DNA of 32,000 nucleotides from Acaryochloris marina MBIC11017 (GTDB lineage: Bacteria > Cyanobacteriota > Cyanobacteriia > Thermosynechococcales > Thermosynechococcaceae), in the NCBI RefSeq assembly GCF_000018105.1, contig NC_009925.1, forward strand, positions 4,050,001-4,082,000, read 5' to 3'. How positions within the stretch are numbered: the stretch's first letter is position 1; every line of letters begins with the position of its first letter. Of the stretch, positions 491 through 12,637 are shown piece by piece. The notes under the pieces were generated by a model. That model saw only the letters and a program-made list of their open reading frames with translations, did not search any database and was not told the DNA's origin. The translations under genes were made by a program, and so were the position numbers.

Positions 491-1103
491 ATTGCGTATT
501 TGAATATAGCATTTAGACCTTAGATCGATCCAGGTTTCTGGCAATCGATGTAAAAATTCCCCATTATGACGATGAACCTGATGGTAATTGGTAATCGACT
601 CCTAGAGGAGATTGGCTTGATATGAAGGAATGGTGTAGTTCTTCCTGGTTCTATTGGACTAACCTTGTAGCAGAAACTGGCCGACGGGGCTTAAAGTGCT
701 TGGTCGGGTCCATCAAATATGCTTCGCCATGTAATGCTGCGTATATGTGAGTTCCACCTCCAGGGTTTTGAGAGGTTAACTGCGTTGATCCAAACTATGA
801 ATCGCAACGCAGTCTAATGATGAGCTAAACGTATGGTTGGCAATGACTGATTTTAATCTTTACCAAATGTGTGCCATAACATTTTGCGATGAACAACAAG
901 ACAGCAAGGCATTCTGAATGTTGTATGACGGTGTCAAAATATTTATGCCAATTTGGCAACATGATTTTATTCTTCCTTCCTATAGTAATTTCAGTAACGA
1001 GCTAATCAAGGTTTTCTCCTTCAGCTTGAAATAAGCATGAAACTGTTAATTTATTGCTCAGGATTTTTGGATATATGCCACAGATTTCAGCAATAAAATT
1101 AGG

Positions 1104-1127
1104 TTTTAAGTTTGATTTTAAGTTTTA
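1104..1127 (+). repeat. tandem 12-nt direct repeat upstream of the precursor gene
   Basis: ttttaagtttga / ttttaagtttta. The core ttttaagttt occurs at 1104-1113 and again at 1116-1125, about 80-100 nt upstream of the ATG at 1207. Confidence 0.5.
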
Positions 1128-1206
1128 GGAAAAAATTAAAGAAACTGGGTTATATATCTAGCTTTCTGATAAAGACTAGCTCAATAAATACAAGAGGAAT
1201 AGATTG

Positions 1207-1464
1207 ATGATTATCTCTGATTTGAATTACTGTGAAGCTGTTACTGAAGGTCTTGACAAAGTTGCTGGCGGGAGTTTCAGCAAAAAAGTTCACTTAAAAT
1301 TCGTAGTCATTAAAACTTTTGGTAAGCCTGTAGGTAACATCGCTAAAGCTGGTGCAACTGCAGATGCTATTGGTCCAGGCTCTTTTAGTGAGGCCACTAC
1401 TACTACTACTACTGTTGCTGGGTATGGCTCTTCATCCGCTGCTAGCTCAACTTCTGTTTCCTAG
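1207..1464 (+). CDS. double-glycine-leader secreted peptide precursor (bacteriocin-like, cyanobacterial ISDLNY..E..GG type)
   Basis: ATG at 1207 is preceded by aagagga (1192-1198). The N-terminus is MIISDLNYCEAVTEGLDKVAGG|SFSKK. Hydrophobic residues sit at -4 (V), -7 (L), -12 (A) and -15 (Y) relative to the GG, as in double-glycine leaders cut by C39 peptidase ABC exporters. The core is Ala/Ser/Thr-rich (AKAGATADAIGPGSFSEATTTTTTVAGYGSSSAASSTSVS). A C39 exporter is encoded in the same island. Confidence 0.65.
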   Translation: MIISDLNYCEAVTEGLDKVAGGSFSKKVHLKFVVIKTFGKPVGNIAKAGATADAIGPGSFSEATTTTTTVAGYGSSSAASSTSVS

Positions 1465-1511
1465 GATAAGCAAAACTTAACTATAAGTTTTGACTGACAC
1501 AGTGATCTGTG

Positions 1512-1561
1512 AAATGAGTTGCTGGAGGCTAGGCTACTAGATTACTTTCAGCAACTCATTT
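1512..1561 (+). terminator. hairpin downstream of the precursor gene (possible intrinsic terminator)
   Basis: AAATGAGTTGCTG (1512-1524) pairs perfectly with CAGCAACTCATTT (1549-1561), giving a 13-bp stem. The loop is large (24 nt), and the stem runs into TTTTC. It lies about 50 nt after the stop at 1464. Confidence 0.4.
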
Positions 1562-1851
1562 TCAATTAATTCAGTGAATAATAAGTTTTAAGATAAGTAG
1601 GTCAAGCTTGATTATAAATGGGTAAATTTATGCAGCTAAATTTCATTTCTAGATCTAATATATGTCATGCATTAGCAATGTTTATATACTGAAATATAGT
1701 TGAGCTTCCATACCCTCACCTATTTACACTTAATTGCGTAGTGAAAATTAGTATATATACTTCTGGTTAAAAGCGTCTATTTTTCATGGCTAAGTATATT
1801 GTCTAAAGTAAGTAGATTACTTTGTAAGAAATTGATTAATAGTGTTGATGT

Positions 1852-2109
1852 ATGATTAAATCTATGCAATTGCAAGAAATGTTAGAGAGCATGAGTAACA
1901 GCTCTAGTATTTCTTCCTCAACAGCTGAGTCAAAAAGCAATGGTGTTGTTAGCCGTGCGTCTGCTAAAGCCACTTCATTTAAAGCAGGAAGTAAGCCTAG
2001 TTGCTCAGAATCGTTTAGTGAAAAAAATTCTCAATCTAGTTGTGCTAGTGCGTCTTCAACAACAAAAATCTCTGAAATTAATGTCCAAACAGATACTTTG
2101 TGCTCATAG
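1852..2109 (+). CDS. Ser/Thr/Cys-rich small protein, possible divergent paralog of the 1207-1464 precursor
   Basis: 85-aa ORF in the same orientation, 390 nt downstream of the precursor. It shares AKA...SFSE followed by a Ser-rich tail (SSCASASSTT versus SSSAASSTS). It has no GG motif and no clear ribosome-binding site, so it may not be expressed. Confidence 0.35.
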   Translation: MIKSMQLQEMLESMSNSSSISSSTAESKSNGVVSRASAKATSFKAGSKPSCSESFSEKNSQSSCASASSTTKISEINVQTDTLCS

Positions 2110-2691
2110 GTATTTTTGTGATTTAAAATTGTAGTGCTTAAAAAAATAAAACTTGAGTTTCTAATTTAAAATATTCTTAGATAAAACTAGTAATTCATGC
2201 TCTTTGTTTGACGTTGGAGCTTATCTTATATGATACAAACTTAAGCTATAAAAAACATAGGGATTGAGAAGCATTGTTCAAAGTTTATATCTAGCTCGCT
2301 TAGATAAAGTAACTATTTTAAAATACTGAAATTGATCTCGGTTTTGAACTAAATAGCATATATAATTTTTGATCTGAGAATATCTTTATTTAAAAGATTT
2401 ATAAAAAATGTATTGTATAATATACTTGAGTTCTTAATGGCATCAAAAACTTTTGATGATAAATGTCTTGAATCTATCTAAAAGATTTTTCTTTGATGTT
2501 CTTTTTGATAGAGAGTTGATTTTTTGAGATTTTATTGAGTTGATAAAACTGAACTTGTCCGATTCTTTATCTAATATCAATTTTTTAACTTCAAATCTAT
2601 AAATATTAGATCCTTTGCAAGGATCTAATATCTGAGATAAGAACTTTTTTAAGCTGTGTTCCAAATAAAGTATTTTACATGATTTAGATTT

Positions 2692-4026
2692 ATGCGAAGA
2701 CTTAACTTAAGCAGAATTAGATTTACCAATCGTGCAGATAGAGTTGACCCTGGAGTCACGATTTTTAACCCTAAAAATTCCTTTGTTAAAACCCTAAGAG
2801 GACGTGACTCCTTGATAGGGACTTCTTCTCTAAATGGTGATTTTGGCTTTGGTGTTTTGGTTGGGGTAGGAGCGCAAGATTTTGGCTCGCTTGCTTCATC
2901 GACTGAGTTTGAGGCTAACTTTAGGCTTCGAACTCAGGGAATTAATAACAAAGGTACGATTGAAACGAATAGCGGCCAGGATGTAATCAAAGGTACTGCT
3001 TCAGCAAATCTATCCGTTTCAACCAATACAGTAGCGGAAGCAATAGCCGTTGCTAAATTTGTTGATACAAGCGTCATCACTCAAGTCCTAGCATCTTTGG
3101 GGGTTGAGGCGAGTGTTATCGGTATCAATAATTCGAAGGCAACTATTAAGACGGGCCTTGGAAGCGATGCCGTTGCTGGCCAAACTGAGGGCAGCATTTC
3201 TGCTACAGCAACAGCCTCTGTAGATGCATCAGCCATTGTCGAAGCGATTGCTGGTGCCCCTATTTCTGATGAGTTAATCGCATTTGCGAATGCCATTGCT
3301 ACAAGTTTAACGGCTGCGTCTATCACGGCCACTGGGATTAAAAACAAGAAAGGACTGCTTTCTACTGGATCAGGTAGAGATAAGCTTACTGCTACTGCAA
3401 CTACGCAATCTGGCACTTTTGCCGGTACGTCTAGTTCTACTTTTTCTAGTGCACCCCCTGAGAATCAAGCATTGGCTTTAGCCGTGGCGGAGGCGGTTGC
3501 GGTGGCTTCTGATATTGCGATCGCAATCGATAATACAGGCGGCAAAATTACCACAGGGAATGGGGCTGATACGATAATTGCCACTGCGGAAGCGACTGGT
3601 AAAGCCTTTGGAATTATCAATACTGGTGGTGTGATTAATACTGGACAAGGGGCTGATCAGATTATTGTTCAGGCTACAGGGGAAGAAGCCTATGGTCTTT
3701 ATGGTGGAAGAGTAAATTTGGGTGCAGGAAAAGATTTATTAACCGGTACCTTTGGTGGCGGTGTGGTTGTCAATGCAGGGAGAGGCAACGATTTTATTGA
3801 TGGTAGTGCTGGTGATTTTGGGAACGCCACATTAAGAGGTGGAAGAGGTCAAGACACCCTCAGTCTTGCGAGTAGCCTTGCAGATTTTTCAGATATCAGT
3901 ATTGGTGCAAATACTCAAGTTACATTCAATCTTGACGGTATGACGCTTGTTACTACGGGATTTGAAGAATTTATTTTAGCGGGTGAAACTTATACTCTCG
4001 CTGGGCTTGCAAGCAATCTGCCATAA
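2692..4026 (+). CDS. repeat protein with RTX-like GxGxDx(I/L) motifs (putative secreted calcium-binding-type protein)
   Basis: 444 aa with about nine copies of a unit such as GINNKGTIETNSGQDVIKGTA, IDNTGGKITTGNGADTIIATA, IINTGGVINTGQGADQIIVQA, LGAGKDLLTG, AGRGNDFIDG and GGRGQDTLSL. These are separated by alternating-Ala segments (AEAIAVAKF, ALALAVAEAVAVASDIAIAI). There is no signal peptide and no GG leader. A ~49-aa non-repeat C-terminal tail follows. An in-frame TGA at 2680-2682 rules out a longer N-terminus. Confidence 0.75.
   Translation: MRRLNLSRIRFTNRADRVDPGVTIFNPKNSFVKTLRGRDSLIGTSSLNGDFGFGVLVGVGAQDFGSLASSTEFEANFRLRTQGINNKGTIETNSGQDVIKGTASANLSVSTNTVAEAIAVAKFVDTSVITQVLASLGVEASVIGINNSKATIKTGLGSDAVAGQTEGSISATATASVDASAIVEAIAGAPISDELIAFANAIATSLTAASITATGIKNKKGLLSTGSGRDKLTATATTQSGTFAGTSSSTFSSAPPENQALALAVAEAVAVASDIAIAIDNTGGKITTGNGADTIIATAEATGKAFGIINTGGVINTGQGADQIIVQATGEEAYGLYGGRVNLGAGKDLLTGTFGGGVVVNAGRGNDFIDGSAGDFGNATLRGGRGQDTLSLASSLADFSDISIGANTQVTFNLDGMTLVTTGFEEFILAGETYTLAGLASNLP
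3517..3524. repeat. HIP1 palindrome GCGATCGC (the only one inside the AT-rich island)
   Basis: Exact octamer read directly. Confidence 0.95.
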
Positions 4027-4220
4027 TATTTCAAGCTAAATAGAGTAAGTGAGAACGCCAAAGATGTTGCTAGAAATGTCTTAGTCTCCTTAGCTCATAT
4101 TCTCCGCTAGAAATTTTTAATCTATTTTGGATAATCGGGTTTCAGCACAACTACCTATTCCTTTCAGATTGAAATAAGGCATAGCTTGTATTAATACTAG
4201 TGAAAACTTAGTCGTAGAAT

Positions 4221-4255
4221 ATCCAAGGGTGCTATTAACAATGGCACCCTTGGAT
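4221..4255. other. perfect 12-bp inverted repeat (hairpin) in the spacer after the repeat-protein gene
   Basis: ATCCAAGGGTGC (4221-4232), an 11-nt loop, then GCACCCTTGGAT (4244-4255). No T-tract follows, so the terminator role is uncertain. Confidence 0.3.
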
Positions 4256-4575
4256 CTAGTGTTGGGATTTGATGAATAACGCTTTCCAAGAATCTTGTTT
4301 AATAAAACAATAAGTTGTTCGCTTGATATAGATTTCGTAGACCGTTTACTGAATATAGTTTTCAGGGGACGATGCTTTCAGTAATTCTGAGAGAACTATC
4401 TTCAAATTTTTTAGCTTAAGCAAACTGATATTAGGTTAGATCAGTACATGGTATGTCCGTGAGCGATTAAGCCTTACGCATGTTTTATAGCTATGGAATA
4501 ATGGCTTTAGAGAAGATATATACAAGTATTTAGCAAAAAAATCAGAAAAATTTTCTATTTGAAATTTCCTACTGA

Positions 4576-5325
4576 ATGATGACTATAGACTTTCGCGGAA
4601 TTCCAATTGAGATAGCTGAGATGCTAGAAGCACTCAAGCAAAATATGAGTCTAGTAGAGGTCTGCGAGCAAATTCTTAAACAAAAAATTATTCTTCAAAC
4701 AGCTGATTCTCAAAATATTACGGTTACACCTGAAGAAATTCAAAATGAAGTAGATGAAATTCGCCGTAATAAGCATTTGGAGAAGGCATCTGATACGATG
4801 GCTTGGCTCAATGAGCAAATGATTACCCCAGATGAATGGGAAATTGTAATTCAGAATCATGTGCTTACCAAAAAATTGGCTAAACATCTATTTGAAGAGC
4901 AAGTAGAACCTTTTTTCGCTGAAAGACGGTTAAATTTTGATCGTTTTGTGGTCTATCAAATTAGTCTTGACTGCCAAAATCTTGCTCAAGAGCTATTTTA
5001 TCAAATTGAAGAAGAAGAAATTAGTTTTTACGAAGCTGCACGACTTTATAACCTTGATGAGAGCGCTCGCTATTTGTGTGGTTATACCGGTCAGAAAAAC
5101 CGTTTAAGTTTTTCCCCCGATATCGCTGCGGCTATCTTTCAAGATCCCTTGCCAATAGGGATTCTAATAGGCCCACTTCAGACAGAAGATGTGTATCATC
5201 TTTTAAGAATTGAGGAACATATTCCTGTAGAGTTAACGCCTGAGTTGAGGCAAGAAATACTTCATAGTTTGTTTGATGAATGGATCAATAAAGAAATTGA
5301 GTACGTTATTAATATGAAAGGATAA
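4576..5325 (+). CDS. parvulin (PpiC)-type peptidyl-prolyl isomerase-like protein, leaderless
   Basis: 249 aa. The N-terminal half resembles the SurA/PrsA-type helical chaperone region (ITVTPEEIQNEVDEIRRN...). The C-terminal half follows the parvulin layout (FVVYQISLDCQNLAQELFYQIEEEEISFYEAARLYNLDESARYLCGYTGQKNRLSFSPDIAAAIF...PIGILIGPLQTEDVYHLLRIEE). The usual first catalytic His position appears substituted. No signal peptide was seen. Confidence 0.55.
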   Translation: MMTIDFRGIPIEIAEMLEALKQNMSLVEVCEQILKQKIILQTADSQNITVTPEEIQNEVDEIRRNKHLEKASDTMAWLNEQMITPDEWEIVIQNHVLTKKLAKHLFEEQVEPFFAERRLNFDRFVVYQISLDCQNLAQELFYQIEEEEISFYEAARLYNLDESARYLCGYTGQKNRLSFSPDIAAAIFQDPLPIGILIGPLQTEDVYHLLRIEEHIPVELTPELRQEILHSLFDEWINKEIEYVINMKG

Positions 5326-5364
5326 AAATTCTGTTAGATATATCAGTTCATCTTTTTAATTCTC

Positions 5365-8300
5365 TTACAGCTCTAGTTGTTGCTGAGCTAAGTAAAAATA
5401 GAGCCCTTGCTTTTTGATTAGCTCTTCGTGAGTGCCTTTCTCAACGAGTATTCCTTTATCTAGCACAATGATGCAGTCAGCATTGCGTACAGTTGAAAGT
5501 CGGTGGGCAATAATAAAAGTTGTCCGTTCTCGCGTTAAATGCTTTAAATTTTCCTGAAATCTTCGTTCTGATTCAGTGTCCAGGGAACTGGTAGCCTCAT
5601 CAAAGATGAGTATGGGGGGCCTTTCAAGTAAGGCCCTGGCAATGGCAATCCTCTGTCTTTGCCCCCCGGAAAGATTAGTACCCCACTCACCGACTTTGGT
5701 GCTGTACCCGAGTGGAAAAGATTGAATAAAAGCATGCGCTTCTGCCAGCTTAGCAGTTTCAATAACCTGCTCTAGACTAATCTTCGGTTGATGGAGCGTG
5801 ATATTTTCTTGGATTGTTCCTGAAAATAAAAAGCATTCTTGTTGAACAACTCCAAGTTGGGAACGGAGTGATTGAAGCGATAAATGATTAAGATCGTGTC
5901 CATCTATCGAAATTTGGCCACTGGTAGGCTGGTAAAGCCCTTGAAGTAACTTGACTAAAGTACTTTTGCCAGAGCCACTACGCCCAACTATTGCTAGAGT
6001 TTGACCTTTGTTAACCTCAAAAGAGATATTTTGGATAGCATTTCGCTCTTCTTCTGACTCATAGCGGAAGGTGACATTCTCGAATCGAATATTACCCTCA
6101 ATATTGGGTAAATTAACAGAAGACTTTTGAGATGCTTCCTCTGGTTGATAATCAAAAATATCATTGAGTCTTTCGACAGATATTAAGACTTCTTGTAATT
6201 CGTCCCATAATCCGACTAAAGCAATAATAGGACTGATAACATTGCCTTTCATCATATTAAAAGCAACATATTGACCAACCGTGAGTTGATCTTGAATAAC
6301 TAAAGTTGCTCCAAACCAAAGTAGAGCAGTTCCGCCAATAGTGTTAATTAGGCTACTCAATATACCTAGATTAATAGCAAGTTTTTGCCCTTTAAATTGT
6401 ATATTGAGTTGATGAGTTAATTTATCTTCCCAACGCCACCGGAACTCTTGTTCTACAGCAACAGATTTAACAGTAGAAATACCGGAGAGCATTTCTACTA
6501 AAGTTGAGTTCTCATCGGCAGTAGCATTAAACTGCTCTCGAGATACTTTGCGAAGCAAAGGAGTTGAAACTAATGTCAGTATGATGATTGGGGGAATAAT
6601 TGCTAATACTAATAATGTAAGTTGCCAGTTATAGTACAGCATCAAGCATAAATAAATGATCCCCGTCACTACATCTAGCCAGGCTAGTAATACCTGTCCT
6701 ATTAAAAATTGCTGAATCTTTTCATTCTCTTGAACTCTTGTGATGATATCTCCGACTCTGCGTGATTCAAAAAATTTGATAGGTAAATTGAGAGTATGTC
6801 GGATTAAACCGCTAATCATTGTCAAATCTAATCGATTAGCGAAATAGTTTAAGAGATATGTGCGAACTGCACTTAGCCCCATACCTGCGATGCCGAATAG
6901 CAAAGCACCGATGATCATCACATTGAGAGTTGTTTGGCTCTTACTAACGACTATTTGGTCAAGAATTATTTGAGTAAATAGCGGTGAAATAATGCCAAAA
7001 ATTTGAATTAAGATAGACGCTAAGATGATTTGCAGTCCTAAAGAGCGATACGGTAAAAGTAGATTGAAAAATCTACCTAAAGAGCGCTTTTCACCAGGAA
7101 CTGCATATAATTGTTCAGTTGGGTCTAGAAGAAGCGCAAAACCAGTCCAGCTCGCTAAAAATTTTCGGCGTGATATTTGGTATTTACCTTTTGCTGGGTC
7201 AGCAACTAAAACCTTGTCTCCTTTAACCCAGTAAACAACAATAAAGTGGTCTCCTTCCCAATGTGCAATCCACGGATTAGCTTCATCGGCTAAACGATTT
7301 AAACTGGCTCGTACAGGTCGGGCATGGTAACCAAGAGATTCTGCGGTACCCGCTAAATTTTTAAGTGAAGTACCTGAACGCCATACACCGGTTATTTCTC
7401 GTAACCAACTGAGACTAAACCGTTTGCCCCAGTACTGACTAATCATGGCCAGACAAGCAACCCCACAGTCAGACGAACTTTGCTGCTCGATAAATGGATA
7501 TGTGTTCCATAGAGTGCGACGAGGTTTTAGCGGTTTAGGGAAATCAATCTGTTGTGGATGCTCTATGTTCTGCGAAATGGAAGATGGATTGGACTGACCC
7601 TTTCTAACTCTCTGAGGGGTAGACCGAACCAAATTTCGCTTCCAGGATTTAGTGCGTTCGGTGTTGTAAATTCTACGAGGGTTAGCATTTAGTGCTGTGG
7701 TGGGTGATGGACGGCCTTCTTGCACTAGCAAGGACAATTGAGGCGCAATGGTGGTGGCAGCCTCCCAATTTTCTTTTGGTAATTGGTATATCAATAATTC
7801 AGTTTTGCTAGAGTTACTGACCTCAGTCGTGTCAGGATACCCCCAAGTAAATCCAGGGTGAGATTCTTGATCCTGAATCTGACCTTGCAGTAGCCAAAAA
7901 CGACCCAAGTCAGCGGGCGCTAATTCAGTAACAGGTGTACCAGGGAGGATTTTCTTCTCTACGATATATACACAAAATTTTTCTAACTTATGGGTTGGCA
8001 GTCTATTTAAGCTTGTAAGGGTTTTAAAGAAAATTAGACATTGACGATCTTGAATAGTTGTAGCCAAATGACCTTGTAGACTTGGTAACTGTGCTAAAAA
8101 AGGTTGCAGTACCTTAAAAGAAATCTTTGCAATCTGTGCTTCACTCGCAGCGAATGCTTGGTAAGGTAGACTGGCCTCACGGTAATTTGAGTCACCTCCA
8201 AAAAAAACACCCTCTTCCAATAATTGAATGGATAAATTTTGAGCTTTTTCGGAGACAGCACTTACAAGCCTAATTTTCCCCTGAGTTATCAGATATAAAT

Positions 8301-8517
8301 CTTGGTAATTATCCTTTATTTGAGTAGTGAATTCATCGATGTCGTAAACAGCATCTCCAAGTTGTAGATCAAGTATCTCAAATTGAGCACTTAGTTCACT
8401 GATAACAGTATCTGAGTGCGATATGTTACATATTTTAGATAATAGACTGGGAAGCTTAGATAGTTCTACTGGAATTTGAAAAGGGTGGTTGTTATCTGAA
8501 ATTCTTAAATTATCCAT
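5365..8517 (-). CDS. peptidase C39 domain-containing ABC exporter with N-terminal cNMP-binding-like extension (HetC-like)
   Basis: 1050 aa. Residues ~1-330 carry two degenerate cyclic-nucleotide-binding-like segments (LGDAVYDIDE...LYLITQGKIRLV...EEGVFFGGDS; ILPGTPVTEL...RFWLLQGQIQ). The C39 motifs are intact: QQSSSDC351GVACLAMI, H424FIVVY and D440P (codons checked at 7465-7467 and 7246-7248). A six-helix ABC membrane domain follows. The nucleotide-binding domain has Walker A GRSGSGKST, signature LSGGQRQRIAIARAL, Walker B ILIFDEATSSLD and H-loop IIAHRLS. Confidence 0.9.
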   Translation of the reverse strand: MDNLRISDNNHPFQIPVELSKLPSLLSKICNISHSDTVISELSAQFEILDLQLGDAVYDIDEFTTQIKDNYQDLYLITQGKIRLVSAVSEKAQNLSIQLLEEGVFFGGDSNYREASLPYQAFAASEAQIAKISFKVLQPFLAQLPSLQGHLATTIQDRQCLIFFKTLTSLNRLPTHKLEKFCVYIVEKKILPGTPVTELAPADLGRFWLLQGQIQDQESHPGFTWGYPDTTEVSNSSKTELLIYQLPKENWEAATTIAPQLSLLVQEGRPSPTTALNANPRRIYNTERTKSWKRNLVRSTPQRVRKGQSNPSSISQNIEHPQQIDFPKPLKPRRTLWNTYPFIEQQSSSDCGVACLAMISQYWGKRFSLSWLREITGVWRSGTSLKNLAGTAESLGYHARPVRASLNRLADEANPWIAHWEGDHFIVVYWVKGDKVLVADPAKGKYQISRRKFLASWTGFALLLDPTEQLYAVPGEKRSLGRFFNLLLPYRSLGLQIILASILIQIFGIISPLFTQIILDQIVVSKSQTTLNVMIIGALLFGIAGMGLSAVRTYLLNYFANRLDLTMISGLIRHTLNLPIKFFESRRVGDIITRVQENEKIQQFLIGQVLLAWLDVVTGIIYLCLMLYYNWQLTLLVLAIIPPIIILTLVSTPLLRKVSREQFNATADENSTLVEMLSGISTVKSVAVEQEFRWRWEDKLTHQLNIQFKGQKLAINLGILSSLINTIGGTALLWFGATLVIQDQLTVGQYVAFNMMKGNVISPIIALVGLWDELQEVLISVERLNDIFDYQPEEASQKSSVNLPNIEGNIRFENVTFRYESEEERNAIQNISFEVNKGQTLAIVGRSGSGKSTLVKLLQGLYQPTSGQISIDGHDLNHLSLQSLRSQLGVVQQECFLFSGTIQENITLHQPKISLEQVIETAKLAEAHAFIQSFPLGYSTKVGEWGTNLSGGQRQRIAIARALLERPPILIFDEATSSLDTESERRFQENLKHLTRERTTFIIAHRLSTVRNADCIIVLDKGILVEKGTHEELIKKQGLYFYLAQQQLEL

Positions 8518-8551
8518 CTGAATTTAGATTCGTGTTATTCAGTTTTTTGTG

Positions 8552-8971
8552 CTAAAGGTTTGGATTACTGCTCTTTTTATTCCACATAGAAAGATAGTTT
8601 TTGGCTAGCCAGTTATTGCTTGTGCCACCTGTTACCTGAGTCGATTTTTCTCGAACCTCTTCTAGGTATTCGAGATCTTGCATGTATCTGGGTGAGTTTG
8701 ACGGGGTTATAAGTGAATTGGGTTCAAAGTCTTTACAGCTCGCTTTGTCTTTAGATGTTTGATAACTCAGTAGGCTTTCTTTTTTGATTAATCTGTTGTA
8801 GGTGCGATAAGGAATATAGTGAAGTGGGTTATATCCCAGAAAACGCAGCATTAAGACGCAAGCCCAAGAATATTTCCCCATTAGTATGGCTTCAATCACT
8901 TGATTGAATTGTTCGTAGGTGATTTGTTTATCAAAATCAGTCCCAGAGTGAGTAGATAAGTTATGATTCAT
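8552..8971 (-). CDS. HetP-family protein
   Basis: The N-terminal block [45 protein letters not shown] matches, from my memory of the family, the conserved HetP N-terminal domain including its Cys (Cys38 here). The C-terminal ~60 aa are not conserved-looking. The gene ends 34 nt upstream of the HetC-like exporter start. Confidence 0.7.
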
Positions 8972-9348
8972 TCTATTAATCCAATTTTTTGATAAAGCGA
9001 TGCTGTAATTAAAGCTGTATGATGCTATGCGTACTTATTCGTAGATAAGTAGTTTAATTTATGGTGCATTTTGATGGGTTATGAGCCTATTTGTTTTGCT
9101 TCTAATTTTTAAAAAGTTTATTGTTTTATATTGATGCTTTTTATGAAAAATTGAACTTGAAATAAAATAAAAACCTTTTAGCATGATTTTTTGCTTTCTC
9201 TTGATATTATTTCCTGTGATCTGTAGATGGATATTTGAATTTTATAAATTAGGATGAAAACCACTCGAAGACTGTTCAGTAGCCGGAGATGACTGAAAGA
9301 AGATGATGTATTCTATTCATTGATTAAGAGATGAGAATTCAAGCAATG

Positions 9349-10902
9349 TTATTTTTTCGTATTGCCACTCTTCAGTTGCTTGATTGGATCTAATAAAACA
9401 TCGATAATACGACGCTGACGGATAACAATATTAGCTGTTGCCGATTGGCCAGGTCTAAATTTAATTCTCTTGTTATTATCTACGATGTGATGACGCTCTA
9501 ATTCAACTTCAACTTGGTAAACATTTCCTAGCTTCGGATCATATTTTGAGTCTGATGAAATTGAAGATACCTTACCTGGTACTACCCCATAATCTTGATA
9601 TGAATAGGCATCAAATTTGACTTTCGCTGGCTGATCCTTTTTTATAAAGCCTGCTTCCTTATTGGGTAAAACTGCAGAAATTATTAAAGGAGTGTTGTGA
9701 GGTGCAATTTCAGCTACAGTTTGCCCTGAATTGACTACCTTACCTTCATTCTTTAAATTAAATGATAAAACAACACCATCAATAGGTGCTTTAAAGAGCT
9801 TTTGGTCTAGAGTCGCTTTGGCTTTGAGCATCTGATTCTTGGTTTCAGATACTTTAGTTTTTGCCTGGGTGGTTTCTAGTTTAAGCTGGTCAATTTTTTG
9901 GTATGCTTCTAGCTTTAGTCGAGTTCTTTCCGCTTTATTCCGATTTAACTCTGCCTTTAGTTGTTCAACTTGTCGATAAGCAGAATAGAGCTCTCCTTGA
10001 TCTTGTGTCATTTTTGCAGCAAGAGTTCGCATCGATTGCTCATTTTGAAAGATTTGCTGGCTGACACTAGTAATGTCTTGTAATTTACTTTCTGTGATCT
10101 GACTCTGAACTTGACTAAGATTTTGATTGGCCTGGAAGACTAACTCGCTAGAGATAGCACCTTGCTTTTTCAAAGACTTTAATTTTTTCACACGACCTTG
10201 ATTGGATTTGAGGTCTAGCTCTAATTGCTTTACTCGGGATCTTGATAAGTTTGACAAGAGTTTTAAGCGTTTATGCCTGGCATTGTAAGCATTAAGCTCT
10301 TGCTTTTGTTGTATTAGCAACTGAAGTAGAGTATCTGCCCTATCTTCAGCTGATTTTATGGCAGACTCTTGACCCAAATTCTCTGAGGTAGAAATTCGTT
10401 GATGAGTTTGAGCTTCTAAGTAAACTTTATTGAGTAGAGATTGTTTTTGCTTTAGCTCTTGTTGGTAGCTAGACAGCATTTGTTCTAATCGCTTGACTTC
10501 TTTTTTATCTAAAGAAGTATCTAGTTCAGCAATGACTTGTCCAGCCGCAACAGTTTCTCCTTCTTTAACCGCAATTCTGCTGACCTTCCCGATAGCAACA
10601 GATTCAACCTTATATGTCTCACCTTTTGGGACTAGCTTTCCTTTTGCCGTCCCTATATCTTCTATTTTTCCTAGCCAAGCCCAGCCGAGAAAAGCAAGTA
10701 AGAATACTAATCCGCTCGAAATAATTCGGAGAGGCATCTCTGCCGGAGGCTGATCTAGGAGTGATTGTAATGATGCAGACCAATCAATAATGTCATTGTT
10801 TTTATATACAAAATTTTGTATTTTAGGCTGATTTAAGCTTGATCTTTGATCGTTTTTTTTGCCTAATTCTTGATCAGAAATAGTCAAAACCTTTGCCCCC
10901 AA
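9349..10902 (-). CDS. HlyD-family periplasmic adaptor (membrane fusion protein) of a type I / bacteriocin export system
   Basis: It has a single N-terminal TM (LRIISSGLVFLLAFLGWAWLG), a lipoyl-like hairpin (GKVSRIAVKEGETVAAGQVIAELD), a ~230-aa coiled-coil, and a beta-barrel C-terminal part (PIDGVVLSFNLKNEGKVVNSGQTVAEI). The start is uncertain because the ORF opens with TTG at 10902 and no ATG lies upstream of the TM. Confidence 0.85.
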   Translation of the reverse strand: MGAKVLTISDQELGKKNDQRSSLNQPKIQNFVYKNNDIIDWSASLQSLLDQPPAEMPLRIISSGLVFLLAFLGWAWLGKIEDIGTAKGKLVPKGETYKVESVAIGKVSRIAVKEGETVAAGQVIAELDTSLDKKEVKRLEQMLSSYQQELKQKQSLLNKVYLEAQTHQRISTSENLGQESAIKSAEDRADTLLQLLIQQKQELNAYNARHKRLKLLSNLSRSRVKQLELDLKSNQGRVKKLKSLKKQGAISSELVFQANQNLSQVQSQITESKLQDITSVSQQIFQNEQSMRTLAAKMTQDQGELYSAYRQVEQLKAELNRNKAERTRLKLEAYQKIDQLKLETTQAKTKVSETKNQMLKAKATLDQKLFKAPIDGVVLSFNLKNEGKVVNSGQTVAEIAPHNTPLIISAVLPNKEAGFIKKDQPAKVKFDAYSYQDYGVVPGKVSSISSDSKYDPKLGNVYQVEVELERHHIVDNNKRIKFRPGQSATANIVIRQRRIIDVLLDPIKQLKSGNTKK

Positions 10903-12637
10903 AACCTTTTTGTAAAAAATATTCTACTTTATCGCAGATTATTGGTCAAAACATTTTTATTTTAGACAGAAAATGATTTAGATGCATCAAAAATTTAATA
11001 TTTTCTTATTTTTTGAGTGGATTTCTTTTCAAACAAAGATATTTTCATATACAAAAAACTTCTAATGAATCTGATGTGATTAGATTGAGAAGTTCGAGAT
11101 TAAGAATAGCCCTAAAATGATTCCCTTTGTTGGTTAGGGATACGTGATTACCAATAAAGGCAACCTTTTACTAGGCTTGATACTTTTGCCATCAGAGGAT
11201 GAAATGTTATTATCCACCCTTGGATATAAATAATTAGGCAGCACTATTTGACAATCCCTATAGTTTTCTGGAAAAGCCTTGGAAAACTTATAAGCACTGT
11301 CAATTCACACGTTGAATTCGATATCTCTATATTATTTAGAGCTAATGCATGTTGTAGTACCTAACTAGATGACTTAGAACAATATCCTCTAGATGCTTCA
11401 ATCAATCTTATTCACATATTCCATGGCTATACACCATTCCTATATGTCTAGAAAAGGTGGCCCTAGCCATTTATCTTTAGTTCTGAACACTTCCATCTCT
11501 CTTCACTATTTTTGTGAAAAGCTGAACAAATAGTTCTTTGGCCGTTGGCTTGGGGAATTTATTCGAATGTAGTAGACGTAGAAAATCTATAAGTTTAAGA
11601 ATAGTCTAATGTAGAAAATTCTTGGTTCATATATCAAACAAACTAAAAAAACATTCTATCTAGATTGCTTGTGAACTTATAGATTAACCATATTTCGACT
11701 AGATTGGATTGATTTTTTGGCGTTGGTAAACACATTTTGAATTTACCTTTTGTTTGAGCAATTGAATAGTTTTTCTTTACAAAAGTTATCTAGGTTATTT
11801 TATGTTTTATTGATGTCATATATTTTTTTATGACTTTAAATGACAGGTAGTTATTATTCTTTTTTTAACGTATATTGAAAAATATTTATACCTTTTGTAT
11901 CGTAAAATAAGAATTTTGTAAAATGAAATTGATGAAGCCTGGCAACTTCTTGACTACTCAGCGCTTAGATTCTATAGGTGACAGTAGTTTTAGGAGATTA
12001 AAAAAAATTGTATGAGGTAATAGTTTAAAGCTAAAGCCATTATTTTAAGAGGATTATTTTATCGAAGCCCATACTGATTTAAATCAAATGCTTCATAAAG
12101 AAGAGTGCAAATAACGTAATGTTCAACCTCAAAAAGGAATAAAAGGATATAGGCTGATTCGTTGTATCAGATTAGCTAAACTGTTGATTTTGCCATGAGA
12201 TTATAATTTTATCGATAAATAATTCTCAATGGTAACTCTTGTGAAGACTATATAAATTAAGCTAGGTGTATTGATAACTATGGATGATGCGTTTACTTCA
12301 TGCAGCCATGATAAATAGACGCTTGGCGGTAGATTGATCATTTATCTAATTATTGATTAAGGCTCTCTTAGACAGGCTTCAACTGAAGAGAGCATTTTAA
12401 TATCAGTAATATTGGATGCTTGAACTAAAGAAAGGGTAGATTCAATATATATTTAACTCTTACTGATACTAGTCTTGATTTTAGTAGTAAAAACTATCTC
12501 TATTATTTATGCCCACTTAAGGCCAATAATTCAGTAGATAACTTAAAATATTGCTTGGCTCTGTTGGCTATAAACTTTATTCGCTTGATGCTTGCTTCAG
12601 TAAATAAATCTGGATAATGGAATTATGTAATCCTGTC

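Follow-up and report, generated by a model that had tools for sequence, protein, structure and literature searches.

This locus raises the question of how a large repeat protein without a leader might be exported when the transporter encoded beside it looks like one that cuts leaders. The protein, here called REP444 (444 aa in the open reading frame list), is encoded at positions 2692 to 4026, stop codon included, on the plus strand of the window, by which we mean the whole 32,000-nucleotide stretch of Acaryochloris marina MBIC11017 DNA that was analyzed. On the minus strand, Pfam domains delineate a HetC-like long-type exporter (5365 to 8517) with cNMP-binding, C39 peptidase, and ABC transporter regions, and an HlyD-family type I membrane fusion protein is encoded at 9349 to 10902 (minus strand; TIGR01843, 225.7 bits with a cutoff of 208.65). 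RTX cargo is described as pairing with a dead or absent C39 domain, and an active C39 domain with small leader peptides (PMC8277102). Compared with PCAT1 (4RY2; E value of 5e-22), the C39 domain of the window exporter has its Cys (SDCGVACL), His (HFIVVY), and Asp (VADP) in place, and the view of the first-pass annotation that this exporter looks active is borne out at the level of the catalytic triad. With that triad intact, the exporter departs from the usual type I arrangement, in which the cognate ABC protein has no peptidase domain or a dead one. The textbook pairing on which the annotation relied stands, yet it is not absolute, CyaB being a named exception (PMC8277102).

Upstream of the repeat gene and on the same strand, we observe a GG-leader peptide gene (1204 to 1464; likely true start at ATG 1207), whose product consists of the leader MMIISDLNYCEAVTEGLDKVAGG followed by a core, and a small Ser-rich open reading frame without a GG leader (1852 to 2109), which has an ortholog in Acaryochloris sp. 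“Moss Beach.” Compared with the same organism, the leader of the 1204 to 1464 peptide is conserved and its core is divergent. Downstream, positions 4576 to 5325 of the plus strand encode a PpiC/SurA-N-like protein that lacks a signal peptide and is recognized by Pfam Rotamase and SurA_N_3 and, weakly, by TIGR04500, and the minus strand carries, between the exporter and HlyD genes, the HetP-family protein AM1_4010 (8552 to 8971; NF037966, 116 bits), which contains an internal DLEYLEEV...VTGG sequence. A promoter and terminator scan of positions 900 to 5400 was uninformative, giving counts equal to those of shuffles, and no relevant literature was found for the neighboring locus tags AM1_4005-4011.

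The absence of a leader from REP444 is not an artifact of gene calling. Read directly from the sequence, ATG 2692 is the first start codon past an in-frame stop (TGA, 2680 to 2682), which excludes a missed N terminus, as had been claimed. Both a signal peptide and a double-glycine leader were said to be absent, and we agree: the N terminus (MRRLNLSRIRFTNRADRVDPG) lacks both a GG and the hydrophobic core of a signal peptide, and a PG that does occur, at residues 20 and 21, is not conserved, other members of the alignment having SD, SN, or LG at this position. GG-leader cargo carries a leader of 15 to 30 residues ending in GG, GA, or GS and is limited to about 10 kDa or less when mature (PMC8277102); REP444, at 444 aa, has neither property. 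It does have the features of a type I substrate, being without an N-terminal Sec/Tat signal, acidic (39 D+E versus 29 K+R), and Cys-poor (0 Cys, and also no Trp and no His).

The first 39 residues (2692 to 2808, plus strand) are nevertheless strongly conserved in the alignment as M..LNLS.V.FTN..D.V, ending in a degenerate first repeat unit (NPxxSxVxTLxGxD; pLDDT, 79 to 94), and a similar NLS motif occurs in the distant relatives P0113 and P0119. One might read the segment M..LNLS.V.FT as a degenerate, uncleaved leader that is bound by the C39 domain and targets export from the N terminus, and its first 13 residues do align to the MxRLEIxDLSFCE leader found in the second GG-peptide family (hhalign P = 0.008). 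However, the hhalign probability is just 5% over these 13 columns, in a comparison for which a control pair of two real leaders reached P = 9e-6; there is no GG, GA, or GS site and no conserved PG; the hydrophobic register, read directly, does not fit positions -4, -7, -12, and -15; the segment is modeled as part of the fold; and relatives also adjoin PrtD-type exporters, in which a C39 domain is lacking altogether. We therefore consider such an N-terminal targeting very unlikely. As a candidate feature, a GG-like leader in REP444 was rejected, with P values of 0.065 and 0.008 against the two local leader families and probabilities of 5% or less.

The body of the protein is built from repeats. 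We counted nine units that close with GxDx[ILVMF], their Asp residues being at positions 39, 97, 159, 230, 293, 322, 348, 367, and 388, whereas 2,000 residue shuffles averaged 0.8 such units and never exceeded 5; the “about nine” units of the first-pass annotation are thus confirmed. The fuller pattern N-x-G-x-I-x-T-G-x-G-x-D-x-I is matched by five units (shuffle mean, 0.0025), the first and the last three being degenerate. Alternating-Ala stretches are present as described (AEAIAVAK, ATATAS, AFANAIAT, and ALALAVAEAVAVAS), but the implied regular interleaving is not, since the units are unevenly spaced at 60, 61, 71, 63, 29, 29, 19, and 21 residues. The AlphaFold2 model of full-length REP444 is all-beta (pLDDT 91.5, pTM 0.88) and is predicted to form a single tapering beta-solenoid whose coils shorten from 60 to 71 residues, through 29, to about 19. 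Four wide coils (aa 40 to 280; 2809 to 3531, plus strand; pLDDT mostly >90) each comprise, in the modeled secondary structure, two Ala-rich strands of 20 to 24 residues with an NxG turn between them, a 3-residue strand, and a GxGxD turn. Two 29-residue coils of the AIAIDNTGGKITTGNGADTIIATAEATGK type follow (aa 281 to 338; 3532 to 3705, plus strand), delimited from the alignment and the models; their copy number varies, extra 29-aa units being inserted in the aligned sequences P0008-P0010, P0036, and P0041. Next come three narrow RTX-like coils of about 19 to 21 residues (aa 339 to 392; 3706 to 3867, plus strand) bearing the turns LGAGKDLLT, AGRGNDFID, and GGRGQDTLS. In the model, which like all AlphaFold models contains no ions, there is a single RTX-like xGxGxD turn per coil, its Asp being invariant, and these turns would be stacked along one edge of the solenoid.

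The protein ends in a cap (aa 393 to 444; 3868 to 4023, plus strand; pLDDT 90 to 96), modeled as small strands plus a helix, which is presumed to hold the type I secretion signal, although no recognizable type I signal motif is present at the C terminus. The tail had been described as about 49 residues of nonrepeat sequence (396 to 444), and it is indeed free of repeats; rather than being loose, it is conserved across the family, with F400, I402, F412, F424, E425, F429, and L439 invariant or nearly so, and is modeled as folded.

We searched for structural relatives with Foldseek. The full-length model found no match at E < 1e-3, and two thirds of REP444 appear to constitute a different, wide-coil solenoid without a structural match. 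The C-terminal model (aa 275 to 444, 170 aa; pLDDT 95.6), in contrast, found, as far as about rank 36, almost exclusively proteins with beta-rolls of the RTX type or of a related Ca2+-dependent kind, among them an A. hydrophila RTX-like domain (E value of 3.7e-4), CyaA block V as the closest (TM scores of 0.58 and 0.61 over 171 columns), and, in turn, serralysins, lipases, AlgE R-modules, and the MpAFP antifreeze protein. The narrow coils at aa 339 to 392 account for matches of both kinds, to RTX beta-rolls by Foldseek and, by tblastn, from the true RTX proteins of related loci. Judged from the model, this region would be a parallel beta-roll with a C-terminal cap, the three narrow coils and the conserved cap resembling the C-terminal folding nucleus of the CyaA RTX block V. 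The beta-roll or beta-solenoid question posed by the first-pass annotation receives a divided answer, in that the last 170 aa model as an RTX beta-roll while the rest is wide-coiled and PF00353 remains below threshold.

By sequence, REP444 falls outside the RTX family, taken as tandem GGxGxDxUx repeats above the Pfam threshold. PF00353 scores 16.2 bits (E value of 0.01; aa 360 to 375) against a cutoff of 23 and reaches E < 0.01 in just 3 of 37 family members; the true RTX proteins of the related loci L037 and L001, the two that were scanned, score 154 and 179 bits. A comparison of the family profile with a true RTX protein covered 18 columns (P = 0.0015; probability, 17%). The label “RTX-like” accordingly holds for the C-terminal beta-roll model and the conserved turn Asp and does not extend to Pfam membership. 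That Asp, at position 6 as for an RTX calcium ligand, is conserved throughout: D39, D97, D159, D230, D322, D348, D367, and D388 are invariant in the 37-sequence alignment and D293 in a 13-sequence subset, as are the Asn residues of the NxG turns (N86, N147, and N218; 37 sequences).

The REP444 family is previously undescribed, unannotated, and mainly cyanobacterial. All 101 homologs are “hypothetical,” none has a Pfam domain, and every named one is cyanobacterial. Searched against 1.84 billion proteins, the family profile matches 563 representative clusters, none of them annotated, and most match only profile positions ~280 to 439, that is, the narrow coils and cap, at their own C terminus. 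Pfam and NCBIfam gave nothing above threshold for REP444 and eight long distant relatives, and no sequence relative with a solved structure was found at E ≤ 1.

Related loci were collected with the 13-sequence subset, the 37-sequence alignment being too divergent for this purpose, and they place REP444 in a recurrent context. As in the window, the gene is linked to exporter genes (ABC plus HlyD adaptor) in 10 of the 21 related loci with full flanks, within 10 kb. Adjacency to ABC/HlyD genes is thus conserved in about half of the loci, and homologs are therefore not consistently found away from such genes, an outcome that the first-pass annotation had named as counting against it; by the same figures, about half of the loci lack one within this distance, and a cis-encoded exporter is therefore not required. 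The recurring single-strand order, shown by about half of the related loci, is HetC-like ABC, HlyD, PpiC, GG peptides, sometimes a Ser-rich gene, and the repeat gene, with “GGpepA,” the family of the 1204 to 1464 peptide, being present in 19 loci and the PpiC/SurA-N-like gene in 18. The C39 Cys motif is kept in 9/9 adjacent ABC open reading frames that cover it, with the His and Asp positions compared in the window, L003, and L027. The mismatch between a leaderless RTX-like cargo and an active-type C39 exporter is real at this level and conserved, not peculiar to the window.

Distant relatives of REP444 occur beside exporters of other types. Two long proteins, P0134 (1,355 aa) and P0127 (1,819 aa), end in the REP444-type C-terminal module and are directly followed by a PrtD-type type I ABC protein (567 and 597 bits; cutoff, 510) and an HlyD-type membrane fusion protein, so that these relatives sit directly upstream of TIGR01842 plus TIGR01843 pairs. 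Relatives in L047 and L050 are divergent to HlyD and to a long-type, HetC-like ABC gene whose C39 triad has degenerated (in L047, Cys to Ser, His to Gln, and Asp to Ile; in L050, His to Gln and Asp to Leu). A regex scan of L047 found no open reading frame with a DLNYLE-type GG leader, and in the gene list of L050 no small open reading frame separates the ABC gene from the REP-like one. Exporters near relatives in L047, L050, L056, and L057 thus show the missing or dead peptidase domain expected for type I cargo. The loci of P0115, P0139, P0119, and P0118 have no nearby exporter or lie on contigs that are too short. Because relatives adjoin PrtD-type operons and degenerate-C39 exporters, REP444 is well supported as a type I substrate, its secretion being predicted from sequence context and models, and the layout of a C-terminally targeted substrate that was proposed at the outset is upheld by the RTX-type beta-roll with its cap and by the type I ABC/MFP pairs beside its relatives.

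Which exporter would serve REP444 is less certain. It could be a different type I system, encoded at another site of the genome, with the adjacency to the HetC-like gene reflecting coregulation or a shared extracellular function; this would respect the pairing of active C39 domains with leader peptides and of dead or absent ones with RTX cargo (PMC8277102), it would match a superfamily in which PrtD-type and degenerate-C39 exporters adjoin relatives without GG peptides, and it would explain why half of the repeat loci lack a nearby exporter. However, the order and strand of PpiC, GG peptides, and the repeat gene are strictly conserved, and true RTX proteins without GG leaders fill the same “cargo” slot at seven loci. 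In L034, L035, and L040, moreover, the gene just upstream ends 18 to 20 bp before the repeat gene, a spacing that is suggestive of cotranscription with the cargo genes and also speaks against a separate exporter. The upstream genes in these three loci are Ser-rich and equivalent in position to the 1852 to 2109 open reading frame of the window, although an HMM search of the window with this Nostocales Ser-rich family gave no match. Finally, a further type I system is not apparent within the 32,000 nucleotides. We regard export by a distant system as possible but rather unlikely, and on balance favor the reading that REP444 belongs to an undescribed superfamily of type I repeat-protein cargo and probably leaves the cell through the adjacent HetC-like exporter and HlyD.

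In a third reading, REP444 would stay intracellular and serve the not yet exported GG-leader peptides or Ser-rich protein as a chaperone, scaffold, or immunity factor. A signal peptide is indeed absent, small-peptide genes are constant neighbors, and the ENQALAxAVAxA motif of REP444 weakly resembles the GNxAxAxxxAxA of the peptide cores. The first-pass annotation had likewise seen an echo of the core of cargo 1 in the inter-repeat segments, which does not hold up: in profile-profile comparison, peptide cores against the repeat family gave P = 0.09 (13 columns) and 0.31, and the echo was rejected as not significant. Many repeat loci, in addition, have no nearby GG peptide, and canonical type I operons encode proteins with the same C-terminal module. 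Calcium-dependent folding is also suggested by the RTX-like roll and the invariant GxGxD turns, and in RTX proteins such folding does not occur at cytoplasmic calcium levels. An intracellular role therefore seems improbable to us.

For REP444 as cargo of the adjacent exporter, the following sequence of events can be proposed. The chain would be held unfolded in the low-calcium cytoplasm, possibly with the help of the coencoded, signal-less PpiC/SurA-N-like protein, and would be exported C terminus first and uncleaved through an ABC/HlyD/TolC-type channel, most probably that of the HetC-like transporter and HlyD. Two classes of cargo, namely GG-leader peptides that C39 cuts and a leaderless solenoid, would then pass through this one transporter, against the usual view that such pumps handle small leader-bearing peptides only. 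Outside the cell, folding of REP444 would start at its C-terminal cap as the stacked turns take up calcium, and the broad, flat, Ala-lined solenoid would probably become part of the surface or matrix alongside the small peptides that are also secreted. Should this reading be true, the family would be a new one of type I secreted calcium-type solenoids, and its variable-pitch architecture would widen what RTX-like repeats can build. The occurrence of the same module beside PrtD-type, dead-C39, and active-C39 exporters would also offer a natural series for examining the C39-cargo rule.

Comparison with known systems places REP444 close to RTX substrates. Like CyaA block V, serralysin/alkaline proteases, family I.3 lipases, and AlgE R-modules, it has xGxGxDxUx turns with an invariant Asp, is acidic, Cys-free, and without an N-terminal signal, and is encoded near ABC and HlyD genes; its C-terminal 170-aa model superposes on CyaA block V, cap included. 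Unlike them, it falls below the PF00353 threshold, is predicted to have one calcium-type turn per coil instead of two, varies in coil length from ~19 to 29 to 60 to 71 residues, has long Ala-rich hairpin strands without a structural match, and neighbors an exporter whose C39 domain appears catalytically intact. The Marinomonas primoryensis ice-binding adhesin is a type I secreted surface protein, and its region IV (3P4G), a Ca2+-dependent one-sided beta-solenoid, has a single column of calcium-type turns and ~19-residue coils. Residues 339 to 392 of REP444 fit such one-turn coils, the Foldseek match to 3P4G being weak (TMq of 0.41 to 0.50, E values of 0.1 to 0.4), but REP444 differs in its wide coils and its cap.

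Among cyanobacterial systems, Sll1180 of Synechocystis PCC 6803 is presumably a long-type transporter with an active C39 domain. According to PMC11594277, which cites Agarwal 2018, it acts as the ABC component together with Sll1181 (MFP) and Slr1270 (TolC) in exporting Sll1951, a leaderless RTX-type S-layer protein; the likeness to REP444 lies in the predicted export of a leaderless cyanobacterial protein by an ABC/HlyD/TolC system. As in the window, the EbfG1-4/PteB system of Synechococcus elongatus PCC 7942 has small GG-motif proteins encoded beside a C39 ABC protein and HlyD, and the secreted EbfG peptides are described as forming an amyloid-like biofilm matrix (PMC12267927; PMC4997328). 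In the accessible part of PMC12267927, the EbfG cluster is presented without mention of a large leaderless solenoid protein. By analogy with this precedent, the locus may have a bearing on cyanobacterial surface and biofilm biology.

A more far-reaching idea is that one active-C39 HetC-like exporter releases both cargoes, the GG-leader peptides after cleavage and REP444 by a C-terminal route of the RTX type, and that the calcium-folded solenoid, with its broad Ala-lined sheets, templates the secreted Ala/Ser/Thr-rich peptides into an amyloid-like surface or matrix layer. Such templating would parallel the CsgB-CsgA relation in curli or, by analogy, extend the EbfG biofilm system; we rate it a long shot.

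Acaryochloris is not known to form heterocysts. With the groups I and II of Wang et al. (2011) and with Nostoc HetC/HetP, the window shares, as far as the available sections describe them, a long-type ABC protein (CAP_ED and C39), HlyD, and a SurA-like PPIase; PteB-type transporters correspond to Wang's short type, whereas the window exporter is of the long type with a cNMP domain. Nostoc HetC is needed for heterocyst maturation, and since the substrates of HetC-like transporters are still unknown (PMC10986499), leaderless proteins may merit a place on lists of candidate substrates. The window cluster itself is the group I “bacteriocin” cluster of Acaryochloris marina in the same sections of Wang et al. 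(2011), which make no mention of the repeat family and list AM1_4010 (HetP) as the precursor, and the product of positions 8552 to 8971 is identical to the AM1_4010 entry in the supplement.

REP444, the 444-residue repeat protein encoded at 2692–4026 (+), was described in the first-pass annotation as a repeat protein with a nonrepeat tail, lacking a signal peptide or double-glycine (GG) leader, and preceded by an upstream stop, and this description is borne out. Nine units end in GxDx(I/L/V/M/F), with Asp at residues 39, 97, 159, 230, 293, 322, 348, 367, and 388, compared to an average of 0.8 and at most 5 units in 2,000 residue shuffles, and the final 49 residues carry no repeat. The fuller pattern N-x-G-x-I-x-T-G-x-G-x-D-x-I is matched by five of the nine units. 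Their spacing is uneven (60, 61, 71, 63, 29, 29, 19, and 21 residues), with alternating-Ala stretches between the widely spaced units, and the protein is acidic and free of Cys, Trp, and His. The N terminus (MRRLNLSRIRFTNRADRVDPG) lacks both a hydrophobic signal core and a GG site, and since no start codon lies between an in-frame TGA at 2680–2682 and the ATG, a longer N terminus is excluded.

A search of 5.8 billion protein clusters recovered 101 relatives, all annotated as “hypothetical” and without a Pfam domain. Named relatives are all cyanobacterial (Acaryochloris at 86% identity; many Nostocales, Okeania, and Dapis at 40 to 55%). Across an alignment of 37 sequences, each NxG turn keeps its Asn and each GxGxD turn its Asp in every member, and the N-terminal 40 and C-terminal 50 residues are strongly conserved; the copy number of 29-residue units differs among family members. 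Judged by sequence criteria, REP444 does not qualify as an RTX family member; it scores 16 bits against the Pfam RTX model (PF00353), below the cutoff of 23, and only 3 of the 37 sequences reach an E value of <0.01. No solved structure related to REP444 by sequence was found. This undescribed family has an unusual, variable-pitch architecture whose constituents (RTX-like turns, cap, and type I linkage) are already of a known kind.

The full-length AlphaFold2 model built with the family alignment is confident and all-beta (pLDDT, 91.5; pTM, 0.88). Eight strands of 20 to 24 residues pair as hairpins connected by an NxG turn, a 3-residue strand, and a GxGxD turn, followed by two 29-residue coils, three coils of ~19 to 21 residues, and a small cap built from strands and one helix. 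Read from the secondary-structure string, REP444 would form one continuous, tapering solenoid, with very wide, flat coils lined by Ala giving way to narrow, RTX-like ones. A PDB comparison of the full model gave no match with an E value of <1e-3. For the C-terminal 170 residues modeled alone (pLDDT, 95.6), nearly all matches through about rank 36 are beta-roll proteins of the RTX type or related Ca2+-dependent kinds, including an Aeromonas RTX-like domain (E value, 3.7e-4) and CyaA block V (TM, 0.58/0.61 over 171 columns); further matches are serralysins, lipases, AlgE R-modules, and the Ca-dependent antifreeze protein 3P4G. The beta-roll anticipated earlier is thus upheld for the C-terminal third; the other two thirds appear in the model as a new elaboration of the same repeat unit.

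Among 1.84 billion representative proteins, 563 clusters match the REP family profile at an E value of ≤1e-3, most of them only over profile positions ~280 to 439 and at their own C terminus. Distant relatives share the variable-length GxxNxGxIxTGxGxDxI units and the terminal module of REP444. Exporter partners in this superfamily are of three types: without a peptidase domain, with a dead one, and with an active one plus GG peptides. The first is seen behind the relatives P0134 (1,355 aa) and P0127 (1,819 aa), each directly followed by an ABC protein that lacks the N-terminal peptidase domain and scores above the 510-bit cutoff of the curated PrtD-type type I model (567 and 597 bits), with an HlyD-type adaptor next; both loci are canonical type I secretion operons. 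The second is seen in loci L047 and L050, where relatives of 911 aa and 778 aa (P0113), respectively, are encoded divergently beside HlyD and a long-type ABC that carries cNMP and C39 domains. Both ABCs have a degenerate C39 triad (L047, 4594–7623 [−], Cys→Ser, His→Gln, Asp→Ile; L050, 6158–9139 [−], Cys retained, His→Gln, Asp→Leu), and the L050 protein falls just below the HlyB-type type I model (721.5 versus 725.55). These ABCs may be intermediate, in evolutionary terms, between exporters that cleave peptides and RTX-type ones. A regex scan of L047 found no DLNYLE-type GG-leader ORF, and the L050 gene list holds no small ORF beside the ABC/REP-like pair. Both types fit the published rule that RTX cargo pairs with a dead or absent C39 domain and leader peptides with an active one (PMC8277102), and the REP family is therefore likely to be type I cargo.

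The window belongs to the third type, in which the mismatch between leaderless RTX-like cargo and a GG-specific exporter, proposed from the first reading, is real. Its ABC exporter (5365–8517 [−]; cNMP-binding, C39 peptidase, and ABC domains) aligns to PCAT1 through the C39 domain (E value, 5e-22) with the catalytic Cys, His, and Asp in place; it is of the active peptidase type, in agreement with the early impression of an active enzyme. Domain models also identify an HlyD adaptor (9349–10902 [−]) and a PpiC/SurA-N-like protein without a signal peptide (4576–5325 [+]). Acaryochloris is not known to form heterocysts. A HetP-family ORF (8552–8971 [−]) lies here, with an internal leader-like motif followed by a 23-residue tail; it is identical to AM1_4010 of Acaryochloris marina MBIC11017 (CP000828, 4058552-4058971, reverse), which places the window at ~4.050 to 4.082 Mb of that chromosome. 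Wang et al. 2011 (PMC3140520), whose supplement prints the AM1_4010 sequence, name it as the putative precursor of this cluster, a long-type cluster of their “group I.” A GG-leader peptide (1204–1464 [+]; leader MIISDLNYCEAVTEGLDKVAGG; probable true start, ATG at 1207) was not found by term searches of the precursors in Table S3 of that paper. Between the window and Acaryochloris sp. “Moss Beach,” this gene hardly differs in its ribosome-binding region and leader, whereas its core is strongly diverged. The window layout recurs in that strain, including a small Ser-rich ORF that lacks a GG leader (1852–2109 [+]) between the peptide gene and REP444. That REP444 acts inside the cell as a chaperone or scaffold is improbable; the similarity between peptide cores and REP reaches only P = 0.09. 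Targeting through a leader-like N terminus is more doubtful still, with a similarity to leaders of P = 0.008 at best versus 9e-6 for the control.

Mapping the window's neighbors onto 47 related loci (one genome per species), we observe a recurrent one-strand order of HetC-like ABC, HlyD, PpiC, GG peptide A, GG peptide B, Ser-rich protein, and REP, with only 18 to 20 bp from the Ser-rich gene end to REP in L034, L035, and L040. Flanks of at least 8 kb on each side are available for 21 loci; exporter genes lie within 10 kb of REP in 10 of them, and GG peptides lie within that distance in 10. Since Table 1 of Wang et al. 2011 (PMC3140520) lists a handful of such clusters per 7- to 9-Mb genome, chance adjacency is roughly estimated at a few percent. 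The catalytic Cys is kept in 9/9 adjacent ABC ORFs covering the motif; His and Asp were checked by alignment in the window, L003, and L027. No exporter lies near REP in the remaining half of the loci, many of which carry REP paralogs in tandem or TPR/GT41 glycosyltransferase-like genes.

Taken as a whole, the reading of REP444 as a secreted RTX-like type I cargo is modestly favored. The adjacent HetC-like exporter is its most economical transporter candidate because of the operon-like gene order, and export by this particular machinery is a tentative proposal, only slightly more probable than export of this cargo by another type I system. Seven loci place a true RTX protein lacking a GG leader between the GG peptide and REP (PF00353 scores of 154 and 179 bits for the two scanned, in L037 and L001), in a cargo position equivalent to that of REP444. 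Cytoplasmic REP444 would be kept unfolded, exported uncleaved and C terminus first via an ABC/HlyD/TolC-type channel, and would fold outside the cell starting at the cap, with calcium filling a single column of GxGxD turns. Such cap-first, calcium-driven extracellular folding was reportedly described by Bumba et al. 2016 for CyaA block V. Sll1180 of Synechocystis is presumably a long-type transporter. Together with Sll1181 and Slr1270, it is described as exporting the RTX S-layer protein (PMC11594277, citing Agarwal 2018). CyaB keeps an intact C39-type site (PMC8277102), so the rule is not absolute. The pairing of REP and active-C39 exporters is conserved, a real and testable departure from the textbook correlation, and it bears on the cargo of HetC-like transporters (PMC10986499). 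A surface or matrix role outside the cell, of low probability, is suggested by the flat Ala-lined solenoid, the constant company of secreted Ala/Ser/Thr-rich peptides, and the precedent of the amyloid-forming EbfG of Synechococcus (PMC12267927).

A small Ser-rich ORF lies at 8423–8656 in L048, and Nostocales loci carry, in the position of the window ORF, a different Ser-rich gene (M..YRVITKRIVSPDGKVISEAKS...SSSSSS), for which no HMM similarity to the window ORF was found. L043 encodes four identical tandem copies (1515–3113) of a 102-aa GG-leader peptide with a core rich in alternating Asp/Val (DVNIDVELDLDFDADVDIDVNKDIDVDL), followed by a 763-aa RTX-type protein related to those of L037 and L001. 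Large TPR proteins adjoin REP in L001, L004, L006, L019, L021, L030, L031, L036, L038, and L043 to L046, including exporter-less loci; the L043 protein, the only one scanned, carries a GT41 O-GlcNAc-transferase-like domain (PF13844, 90 bits), and a REP neighbor in L051 (7668–11453) combines GT41 and GT2 domains. These TPR/GT41 proteins could glycosylate Ser/Thr-rich neighbors. Downstream of REP in Rivularia/Calothrix-type loci (L011, L015, L019 to L021, L025, L031, and L035) lies a microviridin-type cluster comprising a precursor with PFFARYL...QGG and TxKYPSD motifs (PF12559), two MvdD-type ATP-grasp ligases (PF21068), a PEP-CTERM-like protein, and two ORFs resembling M16 peptidases in sequence, an arrangement matching group II as presented by Wang et al. 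2011 (PMC3140520). Finally, a tRNA-His gene (416–489 [−]) borders a low-GC stretch (~1000–12600) containing the whole exporter cluster, at 30 to 37% per 1-kb window except for the REP444 and ABC gene windows (41 to 46%); past ~13 kb, GC is mostly 44 to 52%, with low-GC windows at 16 to 17 kb and 26 to 27 kb. The stretch may be a horizontally acquired island.
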